The position numbers and the translations under genes were made by a program. The notes under the pieces were generated by a model, which did no database searches, was not told where the DNA came from, and saw only the letters and a list, made by a program, of their open reading frames with translations. 64,000 nt of DNA, taken from Candidatus Saccharimonadia bacterium (lineage in GTDB: Bacteria; Patescibacteriota; Saccharimonadia; UBA4664). Positions 294 to 24,439 of the stretch are shown in pieces. Where the stretch lies: positions 3,069 through 67,068 of the forward strand of contig DASXHH010000008.1 of the NCBI GenBank assembly GCA_036488585.1, read 5' to 3'. Each line of letters starts with the position of its first letter. Position 1 is the first letter of the stretch.

Positions 294-1175
294 CTAGTAG
301 GTCCCTGTAGCCACCAGTGTCATGCTACCCGAATACCCACCACTTGGAGTTAGCGTCGATATGTTAGCCAAAAAAGTCACTGTGTAATCGGTTTCCCCGG
401 AGCTCTTTGGTCCCGAAGCCACCGTCTCACCGGAAACATATCGATAGGCTGCCGATAGTCCACCCACTGTGTAGGGACGTGTGGAGCCGTAGGTCCCGGT
501 GATGCCATCACCTGCCACGCCATAACAAAAACCTGTAGCCTGACAAGCCGGATCTGCGGAACCCGGCACCGGGTCCACCGGGCTCCGATCGGCTACCAGG
601 TTTATACCAAACTGCTCAGTTCCTACAGCCGACCCGCAACCCCACGCATTACCACATGTAGCCGTCGTGATGGCAGTAAGATTATGACCACTGTACGAAG
701 GCGTGGAACCTATCGCTTGCACTACGTAACCCGACGATGTGTAATCACTCACTGAAAAGGAAGCAGTCTTAGTAGTCGCTACAGCCGTAGAGAGCACGCC
801 AAAGTTAATTGATGCGGTGTTAATAGAAAGCATAAGGCCCGGCTGTGCGGTGGTATCGAACCCCGCATTGCTCTGGTAGTTACTCGAAGCCGAGTTGCCT
901 ACCGTCGCCTCACCCAGACTCGAGCCGCCATCGTCGGTGGCCGGGTTTAGTGAGTAGTTCGACGATGCACCACAGGTATATACCCCAGACACCTGCGAGC
1001 AACCGTTGCCGCCCACCTCGGTCTCGGTAGCGCTGTAGTTACTGGAGGTCATGGTGGGATCCGACGCGCTAAACGCTCCGCCAGCCGTCGCCAGCACTAG
1101 GCAAGCACCAATTACAAGCTGTCGTCTCCATCCACGCATTACACCCATCTTGCCGCATTTTGACGCTCTGTGCAA
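294..1175 (-). CDS. Secreted surface protein with N-terminal signal peptide and a C-terminal tail (…SGSMTLVATGTY) related to the WxL-like paralog family at 17260-20945
   Basis: N-terminus MHRASKCGKMGVMRGWRRQLVIGACLVLATAGGAFSA reads as a signal peptide. The mature protein is Ser/Thr/Gly-rich with SSNY repeats like the 19887-20945 protein. Its C-terminal block TDYTVTF…YSGSMTLVATGTY resembles the DYTDTLTVVGAG[YN]F tails. Confidence 0.5.
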   Translation of the reverse strand: MHRASKCGKMGVMRGWRRQLVIGACLVLATAGGAFSASDPTMTSSNYSATETEVGGNGCSQVSGVYTCGASSNYSLNPATDDGGSSLGEATVGNSASSNYQSNAGFDTTAQPGLMLSINTASINFGVLSTAVATTKTASFSVSDYTSSGYVVQAIGSTPSYSGHNLTAITTATCGNAWGCGSAVGTEQFGINLVADRSPVDPVPGSADPACQATGFCYGVAGDGITGTYGSTRPYTVGGLSAAYRYVSGETVASGPKSSGETDYTVTFLANISTLTPSGGYSGSMTLVATGTY

Positions 1176-7738: not shown

Positions 7739-10700
7739 CTACTTACCCTTCATGCTGAAGGTGATCCGCCCGGCGTATGAGAAGGCGTTGTTCTTGGACG
7801 ACATATCAACCCGGAAAATGATGATGTCTCCTGGTGAGAACCCGCAGGTGTTAGGATCGGTTGCATATGATACTGTCTGCCACGTGTTCGCGGAAGTCGT
7901 AACATTAGTGGATGTCCCACAAGCAGCACCGCTGTTCTCGAATACCGAGTACGCGACATCTGCATCGGTGGTCGACGAGACCCGGCCCACCATCTTCAGC
8001 GTAGTCGAGTTCAGGAACCCGCCGAAGGTCGGCGGCAACTGGTACTTCACATAAATGCTATAGGTCTGAGCAGACACCTGTGAAGTCGTCCACTGGTAGT
8101 AGTTGAACTCCTCACCACTGTTAGCGCATAAGGTCGCGTTGATGCCCTGGGCGTTCGAGCAGATGTTGGCGGTCATGGTACCGATGTGCGTGTCCGTACC
8201 CACACCCGGGTTCAACACAGCGCCGGCGTATTCGGGCTCGAGAATCAGGTTCGAGTCAGGTGCAGCACCACATGAACCCCAGCCGTCCTTCTCATAGCAC
8301 TGGATGCGGCCAAGCGTAGTGCTGTAGTACATGGAACCGAGCATGTTCTGGTTCACAGCACCCGCGACCGGATCGTTGGCAAAAGAGTCGAGCTGGAAGA
8401 TGGTGAGACCCTGGCTCAAGGGACCACCCACCTGGAGCTCACCAGTGTTTAACGAACCCGAAGTGCTTTGGGCGCCGACAAACAAGTTGTCGATGTACAG
8501 GTGGCGCGTAGTAGCATCAGCTGCACGTATGCGGATGTGGTTGGCTGTAGTCTTCGCGGTCGCAGAGGTTGTGAAGTAGCAGGTCCACTTGAAGAACCCA
8601 GTGGTGGTAATGGTGCCGTTGTCCGGGGTGGTGCAAGTGGCGTCTAGGTTAGTGGCGTCTCTGTAGTACTCCACGATCAGGTTAGCATTGGTCGGCGCCG
8701 AGGTCCCGGCCTTGATGTTGAACGATACGTTGTACAGCTGACTAGTGGACAAAGCAGTGCCACTCAGGTCGTTGTCAGCGCCGCCGGCCCCAGTAAGGCT
8801 AATGTCTAGAGATCCAGTACCCGATGCCAGATTAGTGGCAGATATATTTCGTAACAACGAAGCGCTTCCGGTCGCGGTCCAGCCGGTCGTACCCGTACCC
8901 TCAAGGCCGCTGTTGTCGGCCAGGTTGGCACCCGTAGCGGTGTTAGTGGTGTCAACGTGCAGTACCGGAGCAGCCAAGCTGTTACCAATCTGGAACAGGT
9001 TGGCGTTGTCGTAACCAACACCCGCCTGGAAAAGCAGGTTCTTGGTGGCAGAAGTGGTGATAATGCCGGCCGGCGCTGTTGAGGTGTTGTCGTAAACCTG
9101 CTGCAACGAGGACGCAGTAGTGGTACCACTCCAGTTAGTTCCGTTCCAGATCAAAGTCGAGGTGTTACCGGCTCCCATGTTCACGCTCGAGGTCATACCG
9201 AACGCAGACAATGTAAATGACCCTGATCCAGAAGCCGCTGAAACCAAAACGATATGGCCCGGTGTGGTATTGGTCGGCGCCGGCAGGCTAACGATAGCGC
9301 CCGTAAAGGCCCCAGTCGTTACATTCACGACGATCGTGCCGTAGGTATCTACATCGGACTGGCTGACGTTGAAGGTCTGGGGGCTGCTGGACTGAGTAAA
9401 GCTCTCGCTATTCGAATTGAAGACCGGCGAGCCTAGGCTCACGATACCAGGCGAACCCGTGCCATGCGCTGTCCCAGCCGTCAGCGAAATGCTTCCGCCA
9501 GCGTTGTTGTTGGCCAGGGCGTTACCGCCCTGCAGTGTAATACTACCGCCTGCGCCCTGGCTACTAGCAGCACCGGAGCCGCCGTTGGTCGCCGCGATAA
9601 CCACTAATCCGCCCGCACCGCTCGAGCCCGCCGCACCGCCGGTCACGTGGACCGTACCACCGTTGCCGGTCCCCGCTCCGGCACCACCCACGACGTTCGA
9701 GTCGCCACCGGCCGTGTTACCGCCACCACCGGCGCCACCGGTCAGAGATGCCACACCGCCCGCGCCAGTTGTACCGCCGGCTCCAGCCACCAACACCAGG
9801 TTACCACCCGCGCCAGTGCCATTGCCGGCCGCCGACCGCACCGTCAGCTTGTTGCCAGCCGTGTTGGTCGCCGTCTGGTCATCCACCGCCAACACCCGGT
9901 CGGCACCAACCCCAAACTGCAAATCTATCCCACTCTGTACCGCAGGGTTGGTCGCCGTCCCGCCCACATTTATGCCCAATCCATAGCTCGTCACCGTCAA
10001 GATCGAGGCCCCCAGCGTATCACCCGTCTGTGCCGCCCGTACTCCAAACAATTCCTGGCCCGCGCTCATGCCCGACGAGATCGCCGACTGCACCGTCACC
10101 GCCTTGTTGGTCAACGTTTCCAAAATACTTGGCTGCGCACCGGCCGAGTTGTTATAGGCATCCTGCAGCTTCACTACGCTACCGGCCGAATTGAACGTCG
10201 TCGTCCAGTTGGAGCCATCATAGATCAGCATGATGATGTTACCTACCGGCACCGACTGACCCACTACCGTTATCGCACTGGTGGAAGCCACCAGATTGCT
10301 GATGTAAATGATCGAACCCGCCCCCGCCGTTGGTGTACCAATAGATGCAGATGTAAGCGTGGTCGTCCCTGTATCGGTAATCGTAAACGTCGTACAATCA
10401 TTCACGCTCTTAGGGGAGGTGAAAGATAATGTACCGGACGCGCCCGTGTACGCGCACACTACATTCTGCGTGGCACCATTGTTCTTAAATAAGGTCGACG
10501 AGCCAGTCGATCCCACTGTCACGCTATTATTGGCGATCAAATTGCCGGTCACGCCGCTAATCGTCACAGCCGTCGACAACGAGTTGGCTGACGAGCCAGT
10601 AGAGCCAGGCTTCGCAATCTTAAAGTTAATGTCGCCACCGTTGCCAGTACCGGTGCCGATCCCGCCGGCTATCGTAAAGCTGGCCCCAGCGATATTACTT

Positions 10701-13411
10701 CCAGTACCTCCCGTCGCGTGCAGCGCAATGCTAGTCGGCGAAGCATCCGTCACACCCGATCCAAAATACGCATCCTGAACGTAAAAACCGGATGAAGTCG
10801 AACCTCCCACCACCAGCTCATTACTAGCCCCAGCCACCGCACTTGTACCAATGGCAATACTACTAGCGGCCGCGTTGGCGTGTACACCTATTGCCACGCC
10901 ATATGCAGCCGCTGCCGTGCCATACCCCAAAGCGACCCCACCCGGTCCAGTAGTATTGGCACCGTATCCAACAGCCGTACTGTACTGAGTCGCTATTGCC
11001 GAATAGCCGAAAGCCGCGCCCTGCGCCGCCGCTACTGCACTGTCGCCAGCCGCCACGGCCTGAGTCCCCGATAGTGACGCGTTTAAGCCAAACGACTCAC
11101 TATTGGTATAGCCCTGCGTATTAGTAATGTATGCATTTGGCCCCTGCAAATTCAAACCGGTGTTATACCCCAGGTCTACCGCATTTGAACTTGAATCGGA
11201 CGTCAATGCCGATCCAGATGCCGTATAAGTGGCATAAATAGACGCTTCATAGCTCGTATCGTAGAAGGTGCCCGCCCCGGTCACCGAACCAAACGACGCC
11301 GGCATGCTACCGCCAAACGCCCGGGTATTAAATACGAACGGCGACCCCGCGCCAGATGGGTTCACCAACGCCTCATCGCTCAGTGTCGAGTCGTTAGTCC
11401 AAAACGCCAGCCAATAGGTAGTGTTAGCCGCCAGCGTCACGCCGGAAATCGCCATCGCGTTCCAGGAATTACCTGTCAGTCCTGTCTGTGCAGTAGAGGA
11501 GATTAGCGTTGACGGACAATCTGGGTTCGGCGAACAACCCGAGCTGGTATCGGCGTAAATACCCATCTGGCCAAGGGCTCCACCGGTAACTCCCGAGTGT
11601 ATGTACACAGACATACTCCCGATTGAACCTGCCCCTGTCGGAGAGGTAGTAAACTTTTGAGCCGTCAGCAAACCATAGTCCGAAGCACCAGCCGTCCCAA
11701 TCGTGCCGTTTCCTAGCGTCCCAGTCGGCGCCTTACCCAACGTCACCTTATCAGCATCTGTAGCCTTCAGTAGCTCGAAACCTCCCGAATCTTGCACATC
11801 GAGCACCGTTGAGTTGGCACTGGCGTTTTGCACGCTTAATGTCGCACTCGGCGAAGCGCCGTCAATGCCCACCCGACCGCTCGCCGTATCCACTACCAGA
11901 TCCGCGGTGGTACCAGTGCCGTTCTTCACCTGAAAAGCCGTGGATGAATCATGACCACTGGTCGGTTGCACCAACGCCGTACCGTTGATGGTGGTCGCGA
12001 TGTTACTGGTAGTGTTGCCAAGATTGATGGCGTTGGCGTTTAGATTGCCTACGGTCAATGCACCAGCACTGGCAGTATCCAGCCGTGGGCCATAAAACGC
12101 CGTGGTCGCAGTGACGGTGCCGGTAAAGTTTGCTGCCGCCGAAATAGTTTGGCCGTTTACTGTATCGGTAGTGCTTGAGCCGCCATTTTGCGTTACATTG
12201 CCACTCGAATCCACCGCAAATTTACTAACACTCCCCGACTGCAGATCAATCAGGTTGCCACTTGGGCTACTGGCCGTGTTATTGGCCACGATCAGCGCGT
12301 TGCCCGATCCCGGGTTGCCGCTGGCTGTCACGTACAGCGCGTCGCCGGTGTTGGTCTGGTTGTCGAGCGACAGCACCCCGCTCGCCACCGCCGAGCTGGT
12401 GTTCTTAAAACCATACAGATAGTTCGTAGCCGTCACCGCAAACTGCGAGGTATCAGCCGCATTCTTGGCCAAGTAACTACCTGCCACCTGGTAAGTCGCA
12501 CTACAAGTGCTGGCCACCGTGGTGCACACCGTGCCACCCGCATCCGGGAACGTAATCGTATTGTTATGCGTTGGCGTGGTGAACCCAACTGTCGTCGTGT
12601 TGATACCGTTAGTCGCCGTCAGTGTCGAGGTCGAGTTGCCCTGAATCACAAACGGCGTGGTCGTGCGGCCGATCTTGATATTGCTGGCCATACCGGTACC
12701 GATGTCGAGCTCTACCCCGGTAGTCGTATCCACCAGCGGCGCTTGCAGGCTAGTATTTGCGATCACATTACCGGTCACCGCCAGCGAACCAGTCTGCGCG
12801 CTCTCCGAACCCACTGTCTGTAGCTGCCCAAACGCACTCGAGTCCAACCCGTCCAGCAGATTCGAGTTCATCGCATACGGTGCGGCCGTAAACCGGATCA
12901 TCGGCAGCATCTCACCATCGCCGCCAGCAGCTCCAAACGTCACCGCAGTCGAGGTGCCACCCAGATTGATCGATAGCCAGATGGTGTTGTTGTTAAAAAT
13001 CGCCGGTAGCGACGTAATCGAGCCCAGGTCCACCTGGAACACGCCATCCGTTACCGTCACCCGGTTATCCGGCGAACCGCTGCCGTACACGTGATCCTCG
13101 GTCCATTGCAACGTGCCACCACATGGAGAACTCCCGCCACTCACGCACCCGTTACCACCGGTATAAAGCTTGAATTCTACGTTGTAGGTGCCGTTCGGTA
13201 CATTGGTCCCATCGGTGTTTACCAGCTTGCCCTGGAAGTTAATCTGGTTGTTAATCGCCGCCACGGCCGTACCCGGCTGCATCACTGCCACCAGTCCGCT
13301 CAGTAAGACCCCAAAAACACCAGTCACCGCTAGGGCCCTGGTTACTGCGATCCGGCGGTCTGTACCGGCTACCCTGCCTATGCGCCTGATCAGACGATAG
13401 AGGTCGCTCAC
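7739..13411 (-). CDS. Giant (1890 aa) secreted/anchored fibrous surface protein, Gly/Thr/Ser/Asn/Ala-rich, with a GGAGG-type Gly-rich tract and a Cys-containing C-terminal globular domain
   Basis: N-terminal signal anchor (ALAVTGVFGVLLSGLVAVMQPGTAVAA). Very low-complexity G/T/S/A/N composition. Internal …GAGGTTGAGGVASLTGGAGGGGNTAGG… tract around nt 9450-9900. C-terminal ~230 aa hold 8 or more Cys. All plus-strand ORFs inside are Pro/Arg-rich antisense artefacts. Confidence 0.7.
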   Translation of the reverse strand: MSDLYRLIRRIGRVAGTDRRIAVTRALAVTGVFGVLLSGLVAVMQPGTAVAAINNQINFQGKLVNTDGTNVPNGTYNVEFKLYTGGNGCVSGGSSPCGGTLQWTEDHVYGSGSPDNRVTVTDGVFQVDLGSITSLPAIFNNNTIWLSINLGGTSTAVTFGAAGGDGEMLPMIRFTAAPYAMNSNLLDGLDSSAFGQLQTVGSESAQTGSLAVTGNVIANTSLQAPLVDTTTGVELDIGTGMASNIKIGRTTTPFVIQGNSTSTLTATNGINTTTVGFTTPTHNNTITFPDAGGTVCTTVASTCSATYQVAGSYLAKNAADTSQFAVTATNYLYGFKNTSSAVASGVLSLDNQTNTGDALYVTASGNPGSGNALIVANNTASSPSGNLIDLQSGSVSKFAVDSSGNVTQNGGSSTTDTVNGQTISAAANFTGTVTATTAFYGPRLDTASAGALTVGNLNANAINLGNTTSNIATTINGTALVQPTSGHDSSTAFQVKNGTGTTADLVVDTASGRVGIDGASPSATLSVQNASANSTVLDVQDSGGFELLKATDADKVTLGKAPTGTLGNGTIGTAGASDYGLLTAQKFTTSPTGAGSIGSMSVYIHSGVTGGALGQMGIYADTSSGCSPNPDCPSTLISSTAQTGLTGNSWNAMAISGVTLAANTTYWLAFWTNDSTLSDEALVNPSGAGSPFVFNTRAFGGSMPASFGSVTGAGTFYDTSYEASIYATYTASGSALTSDSSSNAVDLGYNTGLNLQGPNAYITNTQGYTNSESFGLNASLSGTQAVAAGDSAVAAAQGAAFGYSAIATQYSTAVGYGANTTGPGGVALGYGTAAAAYGVAIGVHANAAASSIAIGTSAVAGASNELVVGGSTSSGFYVQDAYFGSGVTDASPTSIALHATGGTGSNIAGASFTIAGGIGTGTGNGGDINFKIAKPGSTGSSANSLSTAVTISGVTGNLIANNSVTVGSTGSSTLFKNNGATQNVVCAYTGASGTLSFTSPKSVNDCTTFTITDTGTTTLTSASIGTPTAGAGSIIYISNLVASTSAITVVGQSVPVGNIIMLIYDGSNWTTTFNSAGSVVKLQDAYNNSAGAQPSILETLTNKAVTVQSAISSGMSAGQELFGVRAAQTGDTLGASILTVTSYGLGINVGGTATNPAVQSGIDLQFGVGADRVLAVDDQTATNTAGNKLTVRSAAGNGTGAGGNLVLVAGAGGTTGAGGVASLTGGAGGGGNTAGGDSNVVGGAGAGTGNGGTVHVTGGAAGSSGAGGLVVIAATNGGSGAASSQGAGGSITLQGGNALANNNAGGSISLTAGTAHGTGSPGIVSLGSPVFNSNSESFTQSSSPQTFNVSQSDVDTYGTIVVNVTTGAFTGAIVSLPAPTNTTPGHIVLVSAASGSGSFTLSAFGMTSSVNMGAGNTSTLIWNGTNWSGTTTASSLQQVYDNTSTAPAGIITTSATKNLLFQAGVGYDNANLFQIGNSLAAPVLHVDTTNTATGANLADNSGLEGTGTTGWTATGSASLLRNISATNLASGTGSLDISLTGAGGADNDLSGTALSTSQLYNVSFNIKAGTSAPTNANLIVEYYRDATNLDATCTTPDNGTITTTGFFKWTCYFTTSATAKTTANHIRIRAADATTRHLYIDNLFVGAQSTSGSLNTGELQVGGPLSQGLTIFQLDSFANDPVAGAVNQNMLGSMYYSTTLGRIQCYEKDGWGSCGAAPDSNLILEPEYAGAVLNPGVGTDTHIGTMTANICSNAQGINATLCANSGEEFNYYQWTTSQVSAQTYSIYVKYQLPPTFGGFLNSTTLKMVGRVSSTTDADVAYSVFENSGAACGTSTNVTTSANTWQTVSYATDPNTCGFSPGDIIIFRVDMSSKNNAFSYAGRITFSMKGK

Positions 13412-14711: not shown

Positions 14712-15161
14712 ATGATACTATCTGGCAAACAACTCACGCTGTGCGTGGTTCTCGGAGTCCTCCTCGGCACTGGCATGATCGCCACTCACACCGGGCCCGG
14801 CCTCGCCGCTGACGTTGCCAACACGCCGCACAGCCGCAATACCGTGCGTCAAAACGACTTGAACACGCTGGCCCAAGCGCTGGCCCAATACAAAACCGAC
14901 CACACCGCTTTTCCTGTAAAACTCCCTGCCACCGACACACCCATTTGCACCAGCGCCGGCCAGGATTGCACCTCCAAGCACTACGCCGACCTCAGCTTCC
15001 TCATTACCGGCGGCGATTACCTCACCGCCATCCCGGTGGATCCAGGCCAGGCAGTTGGCCTCTGGGCCAGCGGCTACAACATCTCGCAGCTACCAGACGG
15101 CACCATCCGTCTTACCGCCCCCCAAGCCGAAGCTGGGGCCACCATCTCGGTCGTCCGCTAA
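14712..15161 (+). CDS. Secreted small protein with a pilin/pseudopilin-like segment (RQNDLNTLAQALAQYKTDHTAFP) and a Cys pair, possibly pilin-like
   Basis: N-terminal hydrophobic signal (LTLCVVLGVLLGTGMIA). The segment resembles the post-helix region of type IV pilins/GspG. No canonical G|FTLIE prepilin site. Its 3' end overlaps the convergent gene at 15112 by 50 nt. Confidence 0.35.
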   Translation: MILSGKQLTLCVVLGVLLGTGMIATHTGPGLAADVANTPHSRNTVRQNDLNTLAQALAQYKTDHTAFPVKLPATDTPICTSAGQDCTSKHYADLSFLITGGDYLTAIPVDPGQAVGLWASGYNISQLPDGTIRLTAPQAEAGATISVVR

Positions 15162-16080
15162 CGAGCCACCACACTCCGAGTCCCAGCATTGCCAATAACA
15201 GCACCGCCACCGCCCACAGCCACCAGGCGCCGGCGTACCAGAAGCTCACCCGCGCCGATTGCGTTGTGGTCGTGCCGTCGTACCGGTATACCGTGGTCGC
15301 CGTGTACCGGCCCGGCAGCCAGGCGTTGGCCAGCTGGACCAAGGGCGTCTGGTACCGCCGAAAACTTCCCGGCAAAATAATTCCTGAATCTTCATTGAGC
15401 GCGCCTCGCATCACCTGCCGGCCCAACGGGTCCTGGATCGTCACCGTCCCCCGCGGCACCACGTGCACTGCCCCGTCGTCCAAGAACCGTTCATTGACAT
15501 TAACTGGCAGACTCAGGGCTCCCCTGCCCCCCAGGGTTTGATCCACCAGCCTCAAATTTGGCGGAGCGCTACCATCCTTCAGCAAAAACAGAAGCGAGGA
15601 CAACACCTGCGTAATACCCACTCGCGAATTCTTGGCCGCATCCGTCGGGGCGGTCTGCGCTTCTGCCTCTAGTGCTGCGTAGTGGCCGCCCGACGCCAAC
15701 GACTGCGCATTATCAATCGTCATCCCAATCTGCACCGTGGCGCCGGCCGGCACCGTGGCATCGTGCTTGTCCAACGATACCCAGTTAGTAAGTCCGTGAG
15801 CTTTCTCGAAATCGCTCGTCGCATCGTTTAAAAATGCCACTCCTCCCGATTCGTCCAACGAACCAAAATCCTTAACCTCAAACCTGAACGTCTGGCTCAC
15901 CGCCGAATTGTTCGTCAACATCACCGTGTATTGCGCGCTCGCCTGGTTCTGGCCCAGACTCACCTCTTGGTACACTGGTGAGATTGTCAGCCCGGAGCCG
16001 CCACCAACCGCCAAACCAACTTGTGGCCAAGCCGCCCCCACCAGGGCCAGCGCCAGCCCCCTACTTACACGGCGCTTCAT
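15112..16080 (-). CDS. DUF916/CscA-like cell-surface protein (signal peptide, Ig-like body, C-terminal TM helix and basic tail), copy 2
   Basis: The ORF track starts at 16197, but the signal peptide begins at the in-frame ATG 16080 (MKRRVSRGLALALVGAAWPQVGLA). This ATG overlaps the upstream gene's TGA in an ATGA arrangement at 16077-16080. C-terminal WWLWAVAVLLLAMLGLGVWWLV plus an R-rich tail. Architecture matches DUF916 proteins of Gram-positive Csc/WxL loci. Confidence 0.5.
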   Translation of the reverse strand: MKRRVSRGLALALVGAAWPQVGLAVGGGSGLTISPVYQEVSLGQNQASAQYTVMLTNNSAVSQTFRFEVKDFGSLDESGGVAFLNDATSDFEKAHGLTNWVSLDKHDATVPAGATVQIGMTIDNAQSLASGGHYAALEAEAQTAPTDAAKNSRVGITQVLSSLLFLLKDGSAPPNLRLVDQTLGGRGALSLPVNVNERFLDDGAVHVVPRGTVTIQDPLGRQVMRGALNEDSGIILPGSFRRYQTPLVQLANAWLPGRYTATTVYRYDGTTTTQSARVSFWYAGAWWLWAVAVLLLAMLGLGVWWLVSGRPRWWPQLRLGGR

Positions 16081-17243
16081 CTGCGCTTGCCGAACTTGCG
16101 CACCACCTTTGTCCAGCCCATCGCCCGCCGCGCGCTCGAGTACAGTCCGAATCCGACCACCAACAGTATCGCCAGCACCACCAGCAGCATCCGCCACGGT
16201 ATCACCCAGAATGTCAGCGTACTCTCCATCGGCACATCATGCCCAAAATTATCAGGATAGGTAATTAACAGGTGCGCCGTGTACTCACCAAATCGGAAGT
16301 TAGTTAAGGGATTACGGCTTTGCTTTGCAATAAAATCATCCTCACCTGATGAAATTGCCGATGTCTTATCGGGCTCTGGCAGACCCCAATTTAGCACTCG
16401 CACCGGATTACCCTTTTTATCTATCTTGTTTTTACCGTCAATTTTTACGTCGTTGAAATATGGGAATCCATAATTCCACTCAGCACTAAAGGCCCGCGTG
16501 CTACCGCTTAGCACCATCCCCAGCTCTGAGTTTACAGTCACCAACCCAACCTGCTTATTACCCTGGGAAATGAATATGTTGCCACCGGGACGCACAAAGA
16601 CGTTGCCGTTATTTTTTAACCGCACCGTAAAATCAGTCGGCAGGAATTCCATCACTCGGTGTGCCACGCTGAATGTTGCCAGCTGAAGTGACCGGCTAGC
16701 GCCAGGACTGTCCACGCTCATCATCACCAGTACCGCCGTGCCACCGGCAATTCCGCTCTGTCCATTTCCCACCTTTATTGTGTCACCCACCCGGCTAAAC
16801 ACCACCGCGTAATAATAGGAGAAAGCCGCGGATTTAGGCACGTTTACGGTCATCTTCACCGTCTGCCAAACATCATTTGGCGCCGTAAATGTCGGCCGAT
16901 CAAACGTCACCCAATCAAAGTAATCGTCTCCCGGCCCCCGATCACTAAGTTTTGGCTGGCCCGTCTCCCCTGTGGCACTAAACTTCATCAAGCTTACCTG
17001 CAGCTGCTCGGTATCACCACCCGACTGCTTGATCTTGATGTCGGTGCTCGCACTCTGGCCGGGTTTCGTGTTGAGAACAATCGGCAAGGGCGAGGTAGTT
17101 AGCCTGAGCGGTGCGGTTGGCCGTGTCAGCGGTGTTGCGGTAGCCTTCGCCGCCTCAGCCACCCCGGTCCAAATCGGCGTTACCGGCCCCACTACCATCG
17201 CCACCGCCAAAAATAAAGCACCTAACATTTTTATATTGCCCAT
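16077..17243 (-). CDS. DUF916/CscA-like cell-surface protein (signal peptide, Ig-like body, C-terminal TM helix and K/R tail), copy 1
   Basis: N-terminal MGNIKMLGALFLAVAMVVGPVTPIWTGVAEA and C-terminal WRMLLVVLAILLVVGFGLYSSARR…KFGKRR. Body …IKIKQSGGDTEQLQVSLMKFSATGE… looks like the DUF916 N-domain. Confidence 0.55.
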   Translation of the reverse strand: MGNIKMLGALFLAVAMVVGPVTPIWTGVAEAAKATATPLTRPTAPLRLTTSPLPIVLNTKPGQSASTDIKIKQSGGDTEQLQVSLMKFSATGETGQPKLSDRGPGDDYFDWVTFDRPTFTAPNDVWQTVKMTVNVPKSAAFSYYYAVVFSRVGDTIKVGNGQSGIAGGTAVLVMMSVDSPGASRSLQLATFSVAHRVMEFLPTDFTVRLKNNGNVFVRPGGNIFISQGNKQVGLVTVNSELGMVLSGSTRAFSAEWNYGFPYFNDVKIDGKNKIDKKGNPVRVLNWGLPEPDKTSAISSGEDDFIAKQSRNPLTNFRFGEYTAHLLITYPDNFGHDVPMESTLTFWVIPWRMLLVVLAILLVVGFGLYSSARRAMGWTKVVRKFGKRR

Positions 17244-17259
17244 AACTGTAATTCTCCTT

Positions 17260-18381
17260 CTAGAAATAACCTGCCCCGACCACTGTTAGCGTATCAGTAT
17301 AGTCGGTGGCGGCTGGTGTAACGGATGTAATCGCAACACGCTCCTTTAGTAGCAAGGCGTCTCCATTTGAAGTGCCGCCCGCACATTGCCCTATCTGTTG
17401 GAAGTTAGCCGTGGCCGCTCCAGAATACCGGTCTGTGCCCAGCGGCGAACCATCAACCGAAGCGGTATTGTACTCCGGCGCCACCCCCATTGTGCAGGTA
17501 CTGGTACCGGAAGCAGCGATCGTCACTGCGAGTCCATACTTGCTCGAAACATTCGGCTGCAAATGCGTTGGTGCTGCCGCATTCCACCCCACGGATCCTA
17601 TCAATCCGGTGGAACCTCCAATACTCGTCGACTGCAAGCCTTGGTTGGCCGACTTCGCCCACGCCACCCACCCCTGCTTGGCGTTGGTGTGCACCGTCAC
17701 GGAAATACCTTGCGATTCGTTCACCGCTGTGTAATCCAAGTTGCCGGTATGAGGTACGGGATCGGTAGTGCCTCCCAGATCAAATTGGAAGATTGGCGGT
17801 ACCACCGCCGATACGTTAATTTGGTCCTGGCCGGTATCGACTACTGCAAATGCGATGTTGGCGCTATCGAGGTTCGTCGCTACATTTCCCCCCAGACTAC
17901 CAGACACGGTCGACCCGGTAACCAGCACCGACGAGTCCGTTAAGTTGAAGTTAAAGCAATACAGAGTACCAACAGTCAGTGTCATGGCCGGAGATACCGC
18001 AAAAGTGGCTGTCTTCGCCGAGTTATCCCCATCACCGTTTTGCACGTTTGTGAGTGCTGACGCCCCGCTCGGCCAGTACAGGTTACCAGAACCTACGCTG
18101 TCAGGGTCGGCAGTCGTGTTAGCTACAAAGTTTCCAGTTCCGGTAGCGAGCGTAAACGATGTCGGGAACTTGATTACCACGCTCGATGTCGAACCCGCGC
18201 TCGCCGGCTTAAAGCACACCGTGCCCCCGGTGTTCGTGCTCTTAGCCATTCGGTCCAACCGAACTAGAGCTACTTGAAGTTGACCGGCCTGAGCCCCACC
18301 CACCCACACTAAAGGGGTCAAAATGGTAGCCACAACCAACCAAACTCGCAGTCCTACTGACCGGCGCTGCCGCATGCACAC
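17260..18381 (-). CDS. Secreted protein with WxL-like C-terminal region (GWVAW…ATDYTDTLTVVGAGYF), paralog A
   Basis: Signal peptide (LRVWLVVATILTPLVWVGGAQA). Clear paralog of 18473-19756 (LVRLDRMAKSTNTGGTVCFK vs LVRLNRLHKNSVTGGTVCVK; NAKQGWVAWAKSAN vs NAKNGWVIWSKSAN). The tail YTDTLTVV resembles the WxL second motif YTGTLTWTL as I recall it. Confidence 0.5.
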   Translation of the reverse strand: MCMRQRRSVGLRVWLVVATILTPLVWVGGAQAGQLQVALVRLDRMAKSTNTGGTVCFKPASAGSTSSVVIKFPTSFTLATGTGNFVANTTADPDSVGSGNLYWPSGASALTNVQNGDGDNSAKTATFAVSPAMTLTVGTLYCFNFNLTDSSVLVTGSTVSGSLGGNVATNLDSANIAFAVVDTGQDQINVSAVVPPIFQFDLGGTTDPVPHTGNLDYTAVNESQGISVTVHTNAKQGWVAWAKSANQGLQSTSIGGSTGLIGSVGWNAAAPTHLQPNVSSKYGLAVTIAASGTSTCTMGVAPEYNTASVDGSPLGTDRYSGAATANFQQIGQCAGGTSNGDALLLKERVAITSVTPAATDYTDTLTVVGAGYF

Positions 18382-18472
18382 TCCATCACAAGTATGGAGG
18401 AATTATCTCAAAAGCATAAGCAGCTATCAAGCCCCTTATGCTTTATTTTGAGATTTGGCCCAGTCTATTGAC

Positions 18473-19756
18473 CTAGAAGTTACCTGCTCCCACAACTGTG
18501 AGGGTGTCGGTGTAGTCCGTAGCGGCTGGCACGTCCACCGTGATGGCTGCGCGTTCCTTGATGCTGATGGCACCACCGTTCGATGTTCCGCCAGGACAGC
18601 TCGCAATTTGCTGGAAGTTAGCGGTCATGGCGCCGGCATACTGGTCGTGCGCTGCTGGAGTGCCATCCAGGGTGCCGGTATTGTATTCCGGTGCCACCGC
18701 GATGGTACAGTGACCACCAGCTGAGGCTTGTGAAACTGACATGCCGTACAGTGGTGCAGTTGGAAAGTTCGGAGATGTAGCGTTGCTGTCGAGGTCCGTC
18801 GGCGCTCCGGTGTTCCAGGGGACCGAGGGTATGTTGGCGTTTGCGGCTACACCACCTGCCGAAGCCGATATCAAGCCATTGGTATTGTTAGCGCTCTTCG
18901 ACCATATCACCCAACCATTCTTGGCGTTGGTGTGGACCGTGGCGTTAACACCGCCCGAAGTGTTCACTACCTGGTAGTTCAAGTTACCAGCCGCCGGAAT
19001 GCTATCAGTGGTCGCACTCAGGTCGAATTGGAACAGCGGGGGCACGATGGCGTTTACAACGATCTGGTCTTTGCTCAAGGGGGTAGCCCCACCGGTGTCA
19101 TCCGAGATCTGCGTGGCCCAGTTGGTGCGCATTATGACGTTACCAGAGCCGGGAGTACCAGCAGTACCGGTGTTGTCGTAGGTGGCAATGTAGCCCGGGG
19201 TCGACTCGTCAAATCCAGCCGTGTCAGGCAGGGTCAGCGCCGCGCCAAAATCGAAGCAGTAAACTTTGTTGGCTGCCAGAGCGGTTGAATCGAACCGCAC
19301 GATTTTGTTCGTCGCATCCACACTATGGGCGTGCGCTGCAATCGAGGTCACACCGGGCCAGTCAGCCGCACCCGACGTGTAGTATAAAGACGTAGTTCCA
19401 TTCGGGGCATCCAAAGCGTCCGGGTCGGCAAAGGTCGTAGTACCGTTAGCGCTATGGGTCGTCACCGTCCAGTTGGTCGTCGTGGCGTTCAGGGTAAAGT
19501 TAGTGGTGGTCACGGTTGCCTGAACGGGGAAACCGATATCGACATAGGTTTCACCGCCTACGCCACTCGCTGGAGTCTTCACGCACACCGTACCGCCAGT
19601 CACCGAGTTCTTGTGTAGCCGGTTTAACCTCACAAGACCTGATGCAAACTGCGGCGTAGCAGCAAAGGCTGGAATTGCAGGCATTGAGGCCGAGACTATC
19701 AGCGACGCTATGGCCGAGATGATCAGTTGTCTTGATGTTGGCTTGAGTATTTTCAT
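18473..19756 (-). CDS. Secreted protein with WxL-like C-terminal region (…ATDYTDTLTVVGAGNF), paralog B
   Basis: Signal peptide (LIISAIASLIVSASMPAIPAFA). Same domain order and C-terminal tail as paralog A. Confidence 0.5.
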   Translation of the reverse strand: MKILKPTSRQLIISAIASLIVSASMPAIPAFAATPQFASGLVRLNRLHKNSVTGGTVCVKTPASGVGGETYVDIGFPVQATVTTTNFTLNATTTNWTVTTHSANGTTTFADPDALDAPNGTTSLYYTSGAADWPGVTSIAAHAHSVDATNKIVRFDSTALAANKVYCFDFGAALTLPDTAGFDESTPGYIATYDNTGTAGTPGSGNVIMRTNWATQISDDTGGATPLSKDQIVVNAIVPPLFQFDLSATTDSIPAAGNLNYQVVNTSGGVNATVHTNAKNGWVIWSKSANNTNGLISASAGGVAANANIPSVPWNTGAPTDLDSNATSPNFPTAPLYGMSVSQASAGGHCTIAVAPEYNTGTLDGTPAAHDQYAGAMTANFQQIASCPGGTSNGGAISIKERAAITVDVPAATDYTDTLTVVGAGNF

Positions 19757-19886
19757 TCTTTTCTGTGTGTTGATAACTTTTTGGTTTTGTTAACTCTTAA
19801 GCTTAAGTCTAACCAGCACCATCATAAGTGTCAACAACTTTTACAACAGTTTTTTCCACAACACCAGAAGAAACGCGAGCTTAAGC

Positions 19887-20945
19887 TCAATATGCGCCCG
19901 CCGCCACCACCGTCATCAAATCTGTATAGTCAGCTGAGGCCGGCGTGAGTGAGTTGCTCTTGGCCAACATATCCACCGATCCGCGCCCACCATGAATCGG
20001 GCCGGGCGTAATAAAGAGTTCCTGCAAATGCTGGTACACCGCGCCAATATTGGTTCCGCTCAGTCCGTACAAGCTGGCGACCGACAGTGGACCGCCCGAA
20101 GTCTGGGTCGCCGACACACCCTGCTGGCCGTAGCCTTCAGTCTGACTCGCCAGATCGCCCGCTACCGATGCGATCATATGCCCGGTAGAGCCGCTCAACA
20201 GGCCACCATTTTGGCCACCATCATAAACCATGGCACCGTTGTCGGCATTGGTCGCCAAACTCACCCAGAGCTTGTTGGTAGCTGTGATTACCGAACCCGC
20301 CAGCAAATCTCCAAAGTTTATCTGATACGGCGGGCTTGTAGAGGTATCTGTCGCCGCGGTATCGATATCAAAGGTTAAATATGGATCGACGGTCGATGCC
20401 GAAGACAGCGGTCCATAATCCGTCTCCGTAAACGACCCATGAATCGCCTTAGCCTTCACACTGTAAACCGTACTCCGGTTTAGCCCCCTCAGCATTGCGC
20501 CAGTGGCACCACCCCAAGCCGCGTAGGTCAGATAATCCGCCCCCGTCAGTGTCGACCCCACGGTGAAATCACTCTTCACATACTGGGTGGTGGTAAAGTT
20601 ATCGGTCGAAATAGCCACCGCAAACTTTGCATCCGACGGGTTATTTTGAGGATCAATTATGACTTTAAGCTTGTCATACCACTCAGCATCATTCGAAATC
20701 GTAATTATTGGCACGTTGGCTTGTTTCACGTAATTCTCACCTGCTCCCACCTTGTAATGCGCGCTACTGCCAGATCCTGCCTGCTCGCCGGTTAACCCGT
20801 TCACTCGATAATTCGCCGAGGCCGAGTTGCTTGTGCCGCCACCCCCAAACCCATAAGAATTAAGTTTGAAATTACTACTTGCCGGCAACGACGCTAACAG
20901 CAACAAGCTAACGTTTATCAGTGCCCCTTTCATCCCTGCCACCAC
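19887..20945 (-). CDS. Secreted protein with WxL-like C-terminal region (NKLWVSL…ADYTDLMTVVAAGAY), paralog C
   Basis: Signal peptide (LINVSLLLLASLPASS). N-terminal Gly/Ser-rich SANY/SSNY repeats like the 294-1175 protein. Related C-terminal tail. 5' end overlaps the upstream gene by 16 nt. Confidence 0.45.
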   Translation of the reverse strand: MVAGMKGALINVSLLLLASLPASSNFKLNSYGFGGGGTSNSASANYRVNGLTGEQAGSGSSAHYKVGAGENYVKQANVPIITISNDAEWYDKLKVIIDPQNNPSDAKFAVAISTDNFTTTQYVKSDFTVGSTLTGADYLTYAAWGGATGAMLRGLNRSTVYSVKAKAIHGSFTETDYGPLSSASTVDPYLTFDIDTAATDTSTSPPYQINFGDLLAGSVITATNKLWVSLATNADNGAMVYDGGQNGGLLSGSTGHMIASVAGDLASQTEGYGQQGVSATQTSGGPLSVASLYGLSGTNIGAVYQHLQELFITPGPIHGGRGSVDMLAKSNSLTPASADYTDLMTVVAAGAY

Positions 20946-21670
20946 AGACTATCCTGTACCGTCCTGAGGTAGCCCGCCAAGTCACCACCCGAGGTACTTG
21001 TCACTGCCACGGTCACTAGCATCCCAGCATGCGCCCAATACAGAGTGTGCTCCGAGCCATCCTTCTTCACCATTATCTCGGCTGGCTCACCCAGTACCTT
21101 GGTCGGACTCGCGGGTTCATAATCCTTGCTCACAGCTGTCCGCCACAGGTACCCCGAATCATCCTGCAACTGACCACTGGGCAATTTCGACACCGTCACC
21201 GCGATCTGTGCACCCGACCCATCATGTTGAAGCAGAACGTAGCCCTCGAGGCCGGCCTTAATATCCCGCACCGGCCGCGAATCGCTAAACGTCTGCGGAT
21301 ACGAAAACGAGATGTGCAAGCCTTTAATCGACGGCAGTACCGACGATGACGGCGCAATACTGGCCTTAGCCTCACCCAACACTTTGCTTTGATCCGGCCC
21401 AGCTGATACCGCACCGTTCACAAAATTTAGTAGAAACACGATGCAAAACCCAAACACCGCCCCCACCACCCCCAGCGTCACCCACACTCCTGGCCGCCAC
21501 AGCCGCCGCCGGCGGCCCTCACCCTCCTCGACTTCAGCCTCAGCCACTTCCCGATTATGGCCATCCTCCGGCTCCTTACCCTCCGCCACCGTCTTCACGA
21601 AATGCTCGGGAGTCACACCGTGCAACTCCGCCAGATGGTGCACCATCTTCCGCATCTCATCATCGGTCAT
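20930..21670 (-). CDS. Single-pass membrane protein with an acidic cytoplasmic N-domain and an extracellular C-domain (anti-sigma-factor-like topology); hypothetical
   Basis: MTDDEMRKMVHHLAELHGVTPEHF…EVEEGEGRRRR, then a TM (WVTLGVVGAVFGFCIVFLL), then a ~150-aa outside domain. Function not recognisable. Confidence 0.45.
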   Translation of the reverse strand: MTDDEMRKMVHHLAELHGVTPEHFVKTVAEGKEPEDGHNREVAEAEVEEGEGRRRRLWRPGVWVTLGVVGAVFGFCIVFLLNFVNGAVSAGPDQSKVLGEAKASIAPSSSVLPSIKGLHISFSYPQTFSDSRPVRDIKAGLEGYVLLQHDGSGAQIAVTVSKLPSGQLQDDSGYLWRTAVSKDYEPASPTKVLGEPAEIMVKKDGSEHTLYWAHAGMLVTVAVTSTSGGDLAGYLRTVQDSLWWQG

Positions 21671-22680
21671 GCCAGCGCCGCCAATCGTTTCTCCATAATG
21701 TGCTTCTCACGCCGCTCGCCCAGCCAGAATGAAATAATCATCAGAAGCAACACGATCCAAATCGGCCAGATTACAATCAGCTTATTAAGCGCGCTGTTAT
21801 TGTTGCTCGCGCCACTGCCCGAGGTGGTCGCCCCCTTAGCTGGATTCACAATCGTGGTCAGCTGTAGGTACGCCGTATGACCAGCCCCATCGGTCGCCCG
21901 AATAATCAGCGGAAACGTGTTCAAATATCCGGTCCCAACCTTCTGATACGTATGCTTCACCGTAAACGGCCCCGGCGCCAGGCGCGTAATAAGATCGGTC
22001 GTGCCATCACCCCAATCAACGCTCACCGCGTACGGCGCCTGTCCGCCCACGATCTCTATCGGCCACGTAATTTCCTGCCCCGGCGTCGTCCCCCGGTAGT
22101 AGTTCTCAGACTGCAGCAACAGCTCCGTCGAAAATCCTGGACCACCCGGTGGCTCATTCAGCGTCACGGTAACAGTGTTACCTGTTGGTCCCTGTTGATC
22201 GATAGTGTTAAACGGCAGCGCCGTCAGATCATTGCGCCCAATCACCAAGTCCACCGGCACCGTAAAGTGTCCGCTCGCACTACAAATCACACTGCCCACC
22301 AGAATCCCGTTGGTGAACACCTTAATCAGAGCTCCTGCCGGACAGGTTCCCGTCACCGTCACTGGGTTCGTGCTAAAGCTCTGCCCACCCGTCGGTGACG
22401 TAATAATCGCTGGCTTGCTCGGCCGCGGCGGTGGTACCACCGCATTAACGTTAATGTTATTGTCCGCGCAGGCGTTGTGGACCCCCGGGTTGATCGGCGA
22501 ATTCTGGTTGTCTTGTTCGCTACATAGTACGGACGGATCCACCGCCAGCGCCGACCGGGTAATGCTGCCCAAAAACAACCCCGCCACCAGCAACATAAAC
22601 ACTAGTAACGCATACGACGTGTCGCGATGATCCGACAACCGCCCACTTAATTTGTGGTTCAACCTCGGAAACACAAGCAT
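21667..22680 (-). CDS. Membrane-anchored PKD-domain protein (N-terminal anchor, PKD-like domain, C-terminal TM)
   Basis: VDWGDGTTDLITRLAPGPFTVKHTYQKVGTGY fits the PKD signature (WDFGDG…HTY). N-terminal TM (ALLVFMLLVAGLFLGSI) and C-terminal TM (LIVIWPIWIVLLLMIISFWL). 4-nt overlap with the downstream gene. Confidence 0.55.
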   Translation of the reverse strand: MLVFPRLNHKLSGRLSDHRDTSYALLVFMLLVAGLFLGSITRSALAVDPSVLCSEQDNQNSPINPGVHNACADNNINVNAVVPPPRPSKPAIITSPTGGQSFSTNPVTVTGTCPAGALIKVFTNGILVGSVICSASGHFTVPVDLVIGRNDLTALPFNTIDQQGPTGNTVTVTLNEPPGGPGFSTELLLQSENYYRGTTPGQEITWPIEIVGGQAPYAVSVDWGDGTTDLITRLAPGPFTVKHTYQKVGTGYLNTFPLIIRATDGAGHTAYLQLTTIVNPAKGATTSGSGASNNNSALNKLIVIWPIWIVLLLMIISFWLGERREKHIMEKRLAALA

Positions 22681-23374: not shown

Positions 23375-24439
23375 ATGGCCGACGAGCCCAAACCCAAAGA
23401 AAACGCCAAAAACGGCCAAACCGAGGCCCCATCTTCGGCCGCCCTGTCCCCCGCGCCCACCGTCGTGGCCGGCGACAGCACCAAACCGGCCGCCGACCCC
23501 AACAGCCGCATCCAGGCCGAGCCGCTGTCCGACGGCACCGTCCCTACCGTGCTCACGCCTGGCCAAACCCACCACTCGGTAGCCAAGAGCAAAGCTTCGC
23601 TCACCACCATCTACCGCAAGGCCGACATCATGACCACCCTACTCACTTTTGGCGGCGCCGTGGTGGCCGGAGCCATCATCATTGGCGGCTACATCTACTT
23701 CACCAAGAGTAGAGCCCCAACCCCAACGGCTACTCCCAAGGTCACCAACCTTAGCCAGTCCGACCTCTCCAAGCTCCAGACCTTCTTCCAGGGCAACTCC
23801 GCCGGCAGCTCAGCTGAGGTCCTCACCATTAGTTCATCCTCGCTTTTCAAAAACCGCGTCGCCGTCAGCTCCGACCTCAAAGTCACCGGCGGAGTCTCAG
23901 TCGACGGCACCACCAATCTTGGCGACCTCAATGTCGACAAAACCTCCACGCTTGGCGTAGTTAACACTCGTGGCCAACTCACCGTAGGCGGCCCGCTCAC
24001 CGTCCAATCCCCCGCTCTCTTCAACGCCGGCGCTTCGTATAAAGGCAGCATCTCGGCCACCGGCAACGGTTCCTTCGGCGGCTCACTTTCGGCCGGCAGC
24101 ATTAGTGTCGGCACCCTGTCCGTTACACAGCTCAACATCAACGGCCACTTCAGTCTTGGCGGTCAGGCCCCTTCGGCCTCAAACGGCCAAATCGGCGTCG
24201 AGAGCAACGACTCGGCCGGCTCTGTCACCGGCGTCACCGGCTCTGCCCCCGGAGACCTCGTTACCATCACCTTCCACACCGCCTTCCCGGTTGTGCCCAC
24301 CATTATCATCACGCCCGTCGGCGCCAACAGCGCCAAGGCCATGCCTTACCTTACAAACCTCACTGCCTCCAGTTTCACCATTGGGGCAGCCGGCACCGCC
24401 ACCGGTCCCTTCAGCTTCAATTATTGGGTCATCCAGTAG
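23375..24439 (+). CDS. Membrane-anchored beta-helix-repeat protein with a C-terminal H-type-lectin-like domain (paralog of 1244-2149)
   Basis: TM (TLLTFGGAVVAGAIIIGGYIYF). Repeats LKVTGGVSVDGTTNLGDLNVDKTSTLGVVNTRGQLTVGGPLTV. C-terminal VTITFHTAFPVVPTIIITPVG…LTASSFTIG…FSFNYWVIQ aligns by eye to the HPA H-type lectin core ([22 protein letters not shown]…SPTGFKAS…SISWISIE). Confidence 0.55.
   Translation: MADEPKPKENAKNGQTEAPSSAALSPAPTVVAGDSTKPAADPNSRIQAEPLSDGTVPTVLTPGQTHHSVAKSKASLTTIYRKADIMTTLLTFGGAVVAGAIIIGGYIYFTKSRAPTPTATPKVTNLSQSDLSKLQTFFQGNSAGSSAEVLTISSSSLFKNRVAVSSDLKVTGGVSVDGTTNLGDLNVDKTSTLGVVNTRGQLTVGGPLTVQSPALFNAGASYKGSISATGNGSFGGSLSAGSISVGTLSVTQLNINGHFSLGGQAPSASNGQIGVESNDSAGSVTGVTGSAPGDLVTITFHTAFPVVPTIIITPVGANSAKAMPYLTNLTASSFTIGAAGTATGPFSFNYWVIQ

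Follow-up and report, generated by a model that had tools for sequence, protein, structure and literature searches.

A strictly C-terminal tail strand on probable Pam-type pilins encoded by a gene cluster of a Saccharimonadia bacterium

Pam filaments of Ca. Mycosynbacter amalyticus were resolved by cryo-electron microscopy (cryo-EM) and contain two pilins, PamA and PamB, both two-domain proteins with a nine-strand N-terminal domain (NTD) (bioRxiv 10.64898/2026.03.03.709456). The inter-domain linker of one pilin is donated into the open-barrel C-terminal domain (CTD) of the next, and this CTD resembles truncated chaperone-usher immunoglobulin-like (Ig-like) domains (bioRxiv 10.64898/2026.03.03.709456). 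Further products of the pam operon are PamE, PamT (a single domain, put forward as the tip), PamR (put forward as terminator and membrane anchor, whose N-terminal strand is predicted by AlphaFold to insert into the last pilin), and PamC and PamD, two PapD/FimC-like chaperones with C-terminal transmembrane (TM) helices, while a 'tail fibre-like protein' was reported to be central to pam neighbourhoods (bioRxiv 10.64898/2026.03.03.709456). The window analysed here, a 64,000-nucleotide stretch of a Candidatus Saccharimonadia bacterium (contig DASXHH010000008.1, positions 3,069 to 67,068), carries four minus-strand genes, P1 to P4, whose products end in one related tail. These proteins are most probably Pam pilus subunits and the tail the final beta-strand of the donor-strand-receiving CTD, which assigns the window to a pilus system whose first description dates from 2026.

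Two further systems bear comparison. In chaperone-usher pili, strand F ends the subunit, and the Phe152 carboxylate of CsuA/B is anchored by Arg/Tyr of the chaperone (PMC4654587). The WxL/Csc clusters of Firmicutes (small WxL, large WxL, LPXTG protein and WxL-interacting protein) parallel the present locus in layout, with two or three secreted proteins carrying a strictly C-terminal domain and, after them, a protein with Ig-like domains and a TM helix, which in those clusters is the WxL-interacting protein (WxLIP; DUF916, DUF3324 and a TM helix). The four tail-bearing proteins of the window and their tails are as follows.

17260-18381, minus strand: P1, probable two-domain pilin of PamA/B type, 373 aa, with signal peptide, nine-strand N-terminal beta-sandwich, linker and C-terminal pilin domain, ending TPAATDYTDTLTVVGAGYF
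18473-19756, minus strand: P2, paralogue of P1 with a larger NTD, 427 aa, ending VPAATDYTDTLTVVGAGNF (phmmer E 6e-67 against P1)
19887-20945, minus strand: P3, probable pilin of 352 aa with PamT-like N-terminal S-x-N-Y repeat segment, weakly FN3-like middle domain, linker and CTD as in P1, ending TPASADYTDLMTVVAAGAY
294-1175, minus strand: P4, PamT-like short pilin of 293 aa that lacks the N-terminal sandwich domain, ending TPSGGYSGSMTLVATGTY
17263-17319, minus strand: tail of P1, TPAATDYTDTLTVVGAGYF, predicted strand at residues 365-371 (pLDDT, the predicted local distance difference test score, >90), the most conserved 15-residue window of the family
18476-18532, minus strand: tail of P2, VPAATDYTDTLTVVGAGNF
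19890-19946, minus strand: tail of P3, TPASADYTDLMTVVAAGAY
297-350, minus strand: tail of P4, TPSGGYSGSMTLVATGTY, predicted strand at residues 285-291

As an earlier reading made from the letters alone (the sequence-only reading) had described, the four open reading frames (ORFs) end in the tail, and their signal-peptide-like N-termini, judged by eye, are consistent with secretion. The tail follows the signature TP..(D)Y(T/S)..(L/M)T(V/L)V..G.(Y/F)-stop, in fuller form TP-x3-Y-x3-(L/M)-T-(V/L)-V-x2-G-x-(Y/F)-COOH, the core block lying 5 residues from the end in every case and only G/A-A/T-G-x-Y/F coming after it. To call it invariant is too strong, since the tails of P2, P3 and P4 share 17/19, 12/19 and 6/18 residues with that of P1.

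Searching the six-frame translation of the window with the loose pattern [YF][STA]..[LMIV]T[VLIW][VLIT] returned the four ORFs, each with the match exactly 5 residues before the stop, and one out-of-frame (non-coding) match. In a comparison set of 78 related Saccharimonadia loci (1.28 Mb, 4953 ORFs), 142 of the 152 pattern matches lay 4-6 residues from a C-terminus. A hidden Markov model (HMM) of the last 45 residues gave 180 significant matches among the same 4953 ORFs, of which 179 end at most 2 residues from the C-terminus. The sole exception (L032 9989-11173), where 35 residues separate the end of the match from the stop, may reflect mis-extension of the ORF, a frameshift or read-through. 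When a profile of the four tails was run against 1.84 billion representative proteins, 211 proteins were found at E<=0.001, and the match ended on the last residue in all 150 of the matches listed. Chance is excluded for the strict C-terminal position, and matches by pattern, HMM and profile are overwhelmingly terminal rather than at random internal positions; together with the strand predicted for the P1 tail, this bears out the proposal of a strictly C-terminal, strand-forming and strongly constrained element. The tail feature is real, very strongly supported statistically and largely already explained by the recent Pam description, to which its explicit signature and absolute C-terminal position are additions. 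It offers a simple, highly specific signature for finding Pam-type pilins in metagenomes of the candidate phyla radiation (CPR), including long adhesin-like forms of 784-1272 aa. Among the matches listed, P0280 (784 aa), P0372 (936 aa) and P0355 (1272 aa) carry the tail at the exact C-terminus; they may represent fusions of a Pam pilin domain with a large adhesin-like N-terminal region, reminiscent of 'large WxL' proteins.

A motif that is strictly C-terminal on secreted proteins could also be a sorting or secretion tag, perhaps cleaved by a transpeptidase or a secretion system in the style of LPXTG, PEP-CTERM or the CTD of the type IX secretion system. However, the chain stops 5 residues after the block, with no hydrophobic helix and no basic tail, and structure prediction makes the block a strand integral to the fold (pLDDT >90). 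The NCBIfam pilin-domain model extends to the last residue, and no sortase-type family was found among the cluster proteins scanned. A tag function, which had been among the original suggestions, is therefore highly improbable.

The adjacency of P1 and P2 and their overall identity of 48% would suit a simple origin by recent tandem duplication, with the tail under no particular constraint. The identity is not uniform, however: between P1 and P2 it rises from 33% in the NTD to 59% in linker and CTD and 89% (17/19) in the tail, and between P1 and P3 from 22% in the NTD to 25% in the CTD and 63% in the tail. In addition, the tail is near-invariant among homologues that are only ~40% identical and come from hundreds of genomes. 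This conservation gradient refutes the recent-duplication explanation, which keeps next to no probability. The N-terminal parts differ, as the sequence-only reading noted, but the similarity extends beyond the tail, since a whole CTD of ~140-170 aa is common to the three tandem proteins P1, P2 and P3. Comparison of the P3 and P1 families by hhalign gave a probability of 98.2% (E 3e-14) over 140 columns to the last residue, covering CTD residues 212-352.

The P1 family comprises at least 495 homologue clusters in the protein collection (~350 aa, Saccharimonadia). GTDB species genomes contain 285 relatives, whose titles are almost without exception of Saccharimonadia type, some titles of metagenome-assembled genomes being mislabelled. 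In agreement with a restriction of the system to CPR bacteria, a 100% identical protein (P0121) likewise belongs to a Candidatus Saccharimonadia metagenome-assembled genome. Its most conserved 15-residue windows are the tail (mean 0.88), the linker DQINVSAVVPPIFQF (0.81) and TNAKQGW (0.80). The P3 family was present in 70 of the 78 related loci as well as in the window.

The assignment to the Pam system starts from the curated models of NCBIfam release 20. P4 matched NF058581 (CPR_Pam_pilin_C, the pilin C-terminal domain) with 107.6 bits against a cutoff of 55, the end of the model falling on the last residue, and reached E 1.9e-52 against NF058579 (CPR-type pilus protein PamT), just below the equivalog cutoff. 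The ORF at 21667-22680 matched NF058578 (RbmA-like PamR) with E 1.9e-85 and 286 bits, just under the cutoff of 300. The window shares with the Pam system of Ca. M. amalyticus the CPR class Saccharimonadia, these PamT, pilin-domain and PamR matches, and, in P1, the predicted succession of nine-strand NTD, linker and CTD, with linker and CTD as the most conserved parts, as the preprint also states. Two chaperone-like proteins with C-terminal TM helices (C1 and C2) and a 'tail-fibre-like' neighbour are likewise encoded here.

Differences from the described system were also found. The gene order in the window is R, x, P3, P2, P1, C1, C2 ... T. P3 joins a PamT-like N-terminal repeat segment to a weakly FN3-like domain, an architecture absent from the preprint, and P4 carries an N-terminal repeat segment, whereas PamT is a bare single domain in the preprint. 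The N-terminal segment of P3 (residues ~22-77) aligned with that of the P4 family (~43-113) with an hhalign probability of 90%; it consists of three S-x-N-Y-x-L/V...G-G repeats after the signal peptide, modelled in P4 with pLDDT <50. The Pfam fn3 family was matched weakly by 4 of 35 P3-family members (best E 0.013), and a Pfam scan of P1, P2, P3 and P4 gave no match.

The AlphaFold 2 (AF2) model of P1, built from the family alignment, is all-beta with a pLDDT of 86.8. Nine strands lie between residues 37 and 181, followed by coil at 182-197 and by the CTD at 198-373, which opens with a strand at 198-202 and closes with strands at 338-350 and 365-371 (the tail). A Foldseek search of this model against the PDB returned only generic two-Ig adhesins (SdrG, ClfB; TM-score ~0.2) and was uninformative. 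A PDB set that lacks the Pam structures 25PZ/25QA was searched with the sequences of P1 and P4 and with the profiles A2 and A3, to no informative result; A2 matched only the domain of a collagen-binding adhesin, across the NTD (E 0.0023).

The coil that precedes the CTD holds a second conserved element, the linker motif [DN]-x-I-x-V-x-A-V-V-P-P, which is found at residues 186-196 of P1, 230-240 of P2 and 74-84 of the PamR-like protein.

17794-17826, minus strand: candidate donor (linker) strand of P1, DQINVSAVVPP, the second most conserved window of the family
19037-19069, minus strand: candidate donor (linker) strand of P2, DQIVVNAIVPP
20364-20399, minus strand: P3 linker ASTVDPYLTFDI, a variant of the donor/first-CTD-strand segment (family consensus AATVxPxLxFDIDV), equated with the P1 linker by eye
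22429-22461, minus strand: NNINVNAVVPP, a donor-type motif that opens the mature PamR protein, as in the P1 and P2 linkers
21667-22680, minus strand: PamR-like membrane anchor, RbmA-like (NF058578; Pfam Big_6), with a C-terminal hydrophobic segment as TM helix, lacking the pilin CTD and the tail

In 27 PamR homologues, the consensus sYxVxAVVPgPrP directly follows the signal peptide. PamR has the linker motif and lacks pilin domain and tail, while P4 has domain and tail and lacks the N-terminal sandwich. Such a distribution would be expected with the linker motif as donor, the tail-bearing domain as acceptor and PamR as the plug of the last acceptor at the membrane. Assembly into filaments by donor-strand exchange would here be supported by the donor motif common to P1, P2 and PamR. 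That PamR shares this motif is new beyond the published description, and its presence in both pilin linkers and the PamR N-terminus gives independent, sequence-level support to the AlphaFold-based assembly model of the preprint.

Donation of a C-terminal strand is known in other pilus classes, and the tail, a strictly terminal, amphipathic and highly conserved strand, might itself be the donated one, inserting into the following subunit in the manner of Bacteroidetes type V pili. Against this, the linker motif is nearly as conserved as the tail and recurs in the tail-less PamR, and AF2 packs the tail inside the CTD of the monomer at very high confidence while the linker stays unpaired. The Pam cryo-EM structure, too, shows the inter-domain linker as donor (bioRxiv 10.64898/2026.03.03.709456). 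A donor role of the tail is accordingly very unlikely. The earlier suggestion of strand complementation was right in kind, but most likely the tail belongs to the acceptor, as its last strand, and the donor is the linker DQIxVSAVVPP.

If P1-P4 are Pam subunits, the C-terminal pilin domain would be an incomplete Ig-like open barrel with the tail as its final strand, equivalent to strand F of chaperone-usher pilins. The groove lined by the tail strand would first be filled by a strand of the membrane-anchored chaperone-like C1 or C2 and then, permanently, by the linker of the next subunit, and at the filament base it would be plugged by the donor-type motif at the PamR N-terminus. That the tail is the most conserved part of diverging paralogues would follow from this scheme, as every subunit must fit one donor strand and common chaperones. 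By analogy with chaperone-usher systems, the free C-terminal carboxylate may be gripped by the chaperone, and this grip may be why the chain breaks off at an aromatic residue directly behind the strand. The motif with its strict position, the CTD homology, the pam gene context, the predicted tail strand and the donor motif common to pilins and PamR are shown here, whereas direct pairing of tail and donor, carboxylate anchoring and subunit order in the filament are inferred. The conserved Arg/Tyr of the chaperone family (C1 R250, Y321) were considered as carboxylate anchors and set aside as speculative; when aligned by hhalign, the WxLIP proteins do not conserve the Arg.

The chaperone-usher pilins of Gram-negative bacteria (archaic CsuA/B and CupE; classical PapA, FimA and PapE) share with this scheme an incomplete Ig-like domain completed by a foreign strand and a C-terminal strand (F) that ends the protein, often on an aromatic residue. 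They differ in that an N-terminal extension donates there and an internal linker here. Pam systems have no usher or outer membrane, their chaperones are membrane-tethered, their pilins carry an extra NTD, and no sequence homology is detectable; no usher family was matched by the cluster proteins scanned. The TasA-like and archaeal donor-strand fibres (TLP 9ikk, cannulae CanX) differ in donor position, have no dedicated chaperone genes and show no sequence similarity.

Several observations weigh against the assignment of P1-P4 to the Pam system and against the placement of the tail within it. No NCBIfam Pam model was matched by P1 or P2 even at E<=1, or by any of 39 members of the P1 family, and P3 was matched by the PamT model at the N-terminus only (in 19 of 35 family members), with no Pam pilin-domain match. 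The link of P1-P3 to the experimentally defined PamA and PamB is therefore drawn from context, architecture and profile-profile steps, and the last of these is narrow for P4, since hhalign of the P1 and P4 families gave 67% (E 5e-5) over the last 43 columns only, i.e., the final hairpin. The AF2 model of P4 is mediocre (pLDDT 64), although its terminal hairpin is as in P1. The gene order of Ca. M. amalyticus, as deduced from accession order, is PamC-B-R-D-E-A-T, unlike that of the window. The tail motif is not spelled out in the Pam preprint, a term search of whose main text gave no 'C-terminus', and it is from descriptions of the topology that the tail strand would border the groove and pair with the donor.

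The lack of coverage of P1-P3 by the NCBIfam Pam models suggests that the three tandem genes represent divergent pilin families outside the curated models. C1 and C2 likewise matched no NCBIfam model, so that three pilin and two chaperone families missed by curated models are added to the published description. The current models miss the commonest pilin family of the system, all 285 of whose relatives in GTDB species genomes are unannotated.

The proteins encoded directly after the pilins are as follows.

16077-17243, minus strand: C1, membrane-anchored chaperone-like protein, analogue of PamC/D, with two Ig-like domains and a C-terminal TM helix, found after the pilins in 64 loci
15112-16197, minus strand: C2, second chaperone-like protein (hhalign against C1 99.7%; weak WxLIP_PGBD match, E 0.15)

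Both are built like PamC and PamD: a signal peptide precedes ~300 residues that in many homologues match Ig-like Pfam families, and the chain ends in a TM helix. The true start of C2 is probably Met40 (16078-16080), and the 39-codon extension of the listed ORF would then go untranslated. The stop of C1 and this probable start overlap as ATGA at 16077-16080, which suggests translational coupling of the two genes.

Among members of the C1/C2 family, Pfam matches were to fn3_5, WxLIP_PGBD and Cep192 PapD-like domains. WxLIP_PGBD (DUF916) was matched by 19 of 60 members (best E 2.7e-5), the proteins of the window lying below gathering, and the best PDB sequence match of the family profile was EfmWxLIP1 (E 0.044, 154 positions). 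Alignment of the chaperone-like proteins with seven WxLIP by hhalign gave 98.4% at full length (98.3% for C2), values partly inflated by signal peptide and TM helix; with ectodomains only, C2 reached 85.1% (215 columns) and C1 43%, compared with 0.2% for the controls, two other Ig-like families of the cluster. C1 and C2 thus appear, from these profile comparisons, to be remote homologues of the WxL-interacting proteins (DUF916/DUF3324) of Firmicutes. This remote link is new relative to the published Pam description and, if it holds, ties CPR pili to widespread, mechanistically unexplained Gram-positive surface loci.

It also lends substance to the WxL analogy of the sequence-only reading as far as the neighbouring chaperone-like genes are concerned, but none for the pilins. 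In a WxL explanation, the tail would be a divergent distal WxL motif, and the domain, rather than polymerising, would attach non-covalently to peptidoglycan or the cell surface, as has been proposed for the WxL proteins of Firmicutes. The ends of WxL proteins (YTTTLTWVLSDTPGTEG and GSYAGELTWTLEDAP) do resemble the tails found here (DYTDTLTVVGAGYF and GGYSGSMTLVATGTY), the domain is always C-terminal in both systems, and in both gene sets the genes for it precede one whose product combines two Ig-like domains with a TM helix, these products being the apparent remote homologues just described. The WxL domain ends in Y-x-x-T-L-T-W-x-L-x-D-x-P, and the pattern joint with the Pam tail is Y-x-x-T-L-T-(W/V)-x-(L/V).

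However, the Pfam WxL family (PF13731) was matched by none of the four proteins, by none of 69 family members and by neither the P3 nor the P4 family alignment. An alignment of 11-15 plasmid-borne WxL proteins from Enterococcus, Listeria, Bacillus, Lactococcus, Melissococcus and Lactobacillaceae gave a probability of <=7% in hhalign against all three pilin families, and on this negative result the pilins are not classed as WxL proteins. The tail has no Trp-x-Leu: LTVVG or MTLVA stands where WxL proteins have LTWxL, and the upstream GGW(I/V)AW is only loosely like G-W-x-L. No WxL-domain structure was detectable in the PDB searched. Moreover, the peptidoglycan-binding role of WxL is itself deduced rather than observed, and homologous Pam proteins form filaments by cryo-EM (bioRxiv 10.64898/2026.03.03.709456). 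Cell-wall binding, one of the original suggestions, found no support, and the WxL explanation is very unlikely.

A different relation between the two systems can be considered, in which Pam pili on the CPR side and WxL/Csc clusters on the Firmicute side are two branches of one ancient, usher-less, monoderm-type donor-strand-exchange system with membrane-tethered chaperones. This is put forward tentatively, as a possibility with somewhat less than an even chance. Under it, the tail Y-x-x-x-L-T-V-V may correspond to the distal WxL motif Y-x-x-T-L-T-W-x-L, while WxLIP (DUF916/DUF3324) may be a PapD-like chaperone and not a peptidoglycan- or host-binding protein, and the small LPXTG protein of WxL clusters may be a PamR-like anchor that donates the last strand. 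In both systems, one anchor shares only the N-terminal strand motif with the secreted proteins, namely this small LPXTG protein there and PamR here. For WxL, AF2 was reported to insert a DUF916 hairpin strand into the domain (Hassan et al., PMC10599100). The systems differ in that WxL proteins are proposed to bind peptidoglycan and are not known to polymerise, and in the Trp-x-Leu absent from Pam tails. In WxL proteins, the candidate donor is a strand at the N-terminus with a Pro-rich spacer behind it, whereas that of Pam is an internal linker. Common ancestry of the Pam and WxL systems is plausible but unproven. A link between WxL and donor-strand exchange was absent from the Pam preprint and the searchable literature, save for one 2013 review with each term once. 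If true, the proposal would supply a testable mechanism for the long-uncharacterised WxL loci of Enterococcus, Listeria and Lactobacillus.

In the WxL clusters of Firmicute plasmids that were compared (L079 4173-7936, L080 5596-7885 and L085 3371-6876), the mature N-terminal strands of LPXTG and WxL proteins were AYDSNGVTSF versus EYTSNGAITF, SYTSNGAVDF and EYNSNGQITF, ATSKAGVIF versus KDSKGIVKF, and ATSTAGIRF versus ATSGAHVKL and AESKNHIIF. By analogy with PamR, such sharing would fit donor-strand exchange in WxL loci.

On the minus strand, the genes of the window are arranged in the order 180-aa protein, PamR, single-pass membrane protein, P3, P2, P1, C1 and C2. Farther along the same-strand array, after a 1.7-kb stretch, a 1890-aa protein, a 201-aa protein and a 1536-aa Kelch-repeat protein are encoded, with P4 at the far end. 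The core order PamR, TM protein, P3, P1(/P2), C1, C2 and big protein is kept in most of the 78 loci. The fourth tail-bearing protein, at 294-1175, is ~16 kb off but stands at the end of this one gene array, much of which is syntenic across Saccharimonadia, so the members are not dispersed and a genome-wide family, as had been deduced from their spacing, is not supported.

One further feature belongs to the core.

20930-21670, minus strand: conserved single-pass membrane protein between PamR and P3, its stop overlapping the start region of P3, with homologues at the equivalent position in 28 loci

This protein matched no Pfam or NCBIfam family. The 1890-aa secreted protein (7739-13411, minus strand; N-terminus INNQINFQGKLVNTDGTNVPNGTYNVEFKLY), encoded after the chaperone genes, had homologues at the equivalent position in 22 loci and no Pfam or NCBIfam match; it may be a pilus-associated adhesin. 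The 1536-aa protein (2460-7070, minus strand), encoded between the big protein and the PamT-like gene, has many Kelch repeats (Pfam E 1e-28) and no homologue in the other 78 loci. The 1.7-kb stretch between the big protein and C2 (13412-15111) contains no long minus-strand ORF.

The array is broken by two plus-strand ORFs, at 14712-15161 and 1244-2149. The first encodes 149 aa with a type IV pilin/GspG-like N-terminus (NCBIfam E 1.7e-4), and similar ORFs were found beside pam clusters in three other loci. The second lies between P4 and the Kelch protein and has a paralogue at 23375-24439 (plus strand), just past the PamR end of the array; both encode membrane-anchored proteins (phmmer E ~1e-17 to each other) on the strand opposite to the array, rich in repeats like LNVxG..TVGG and ending in FDYLVMQ and FNYWVIQ, respectively. 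Homologues of these two proteins were observed upstream of PamR in ~17 loci, and they are probably the 'tail fibre-like protein' of the preprint.

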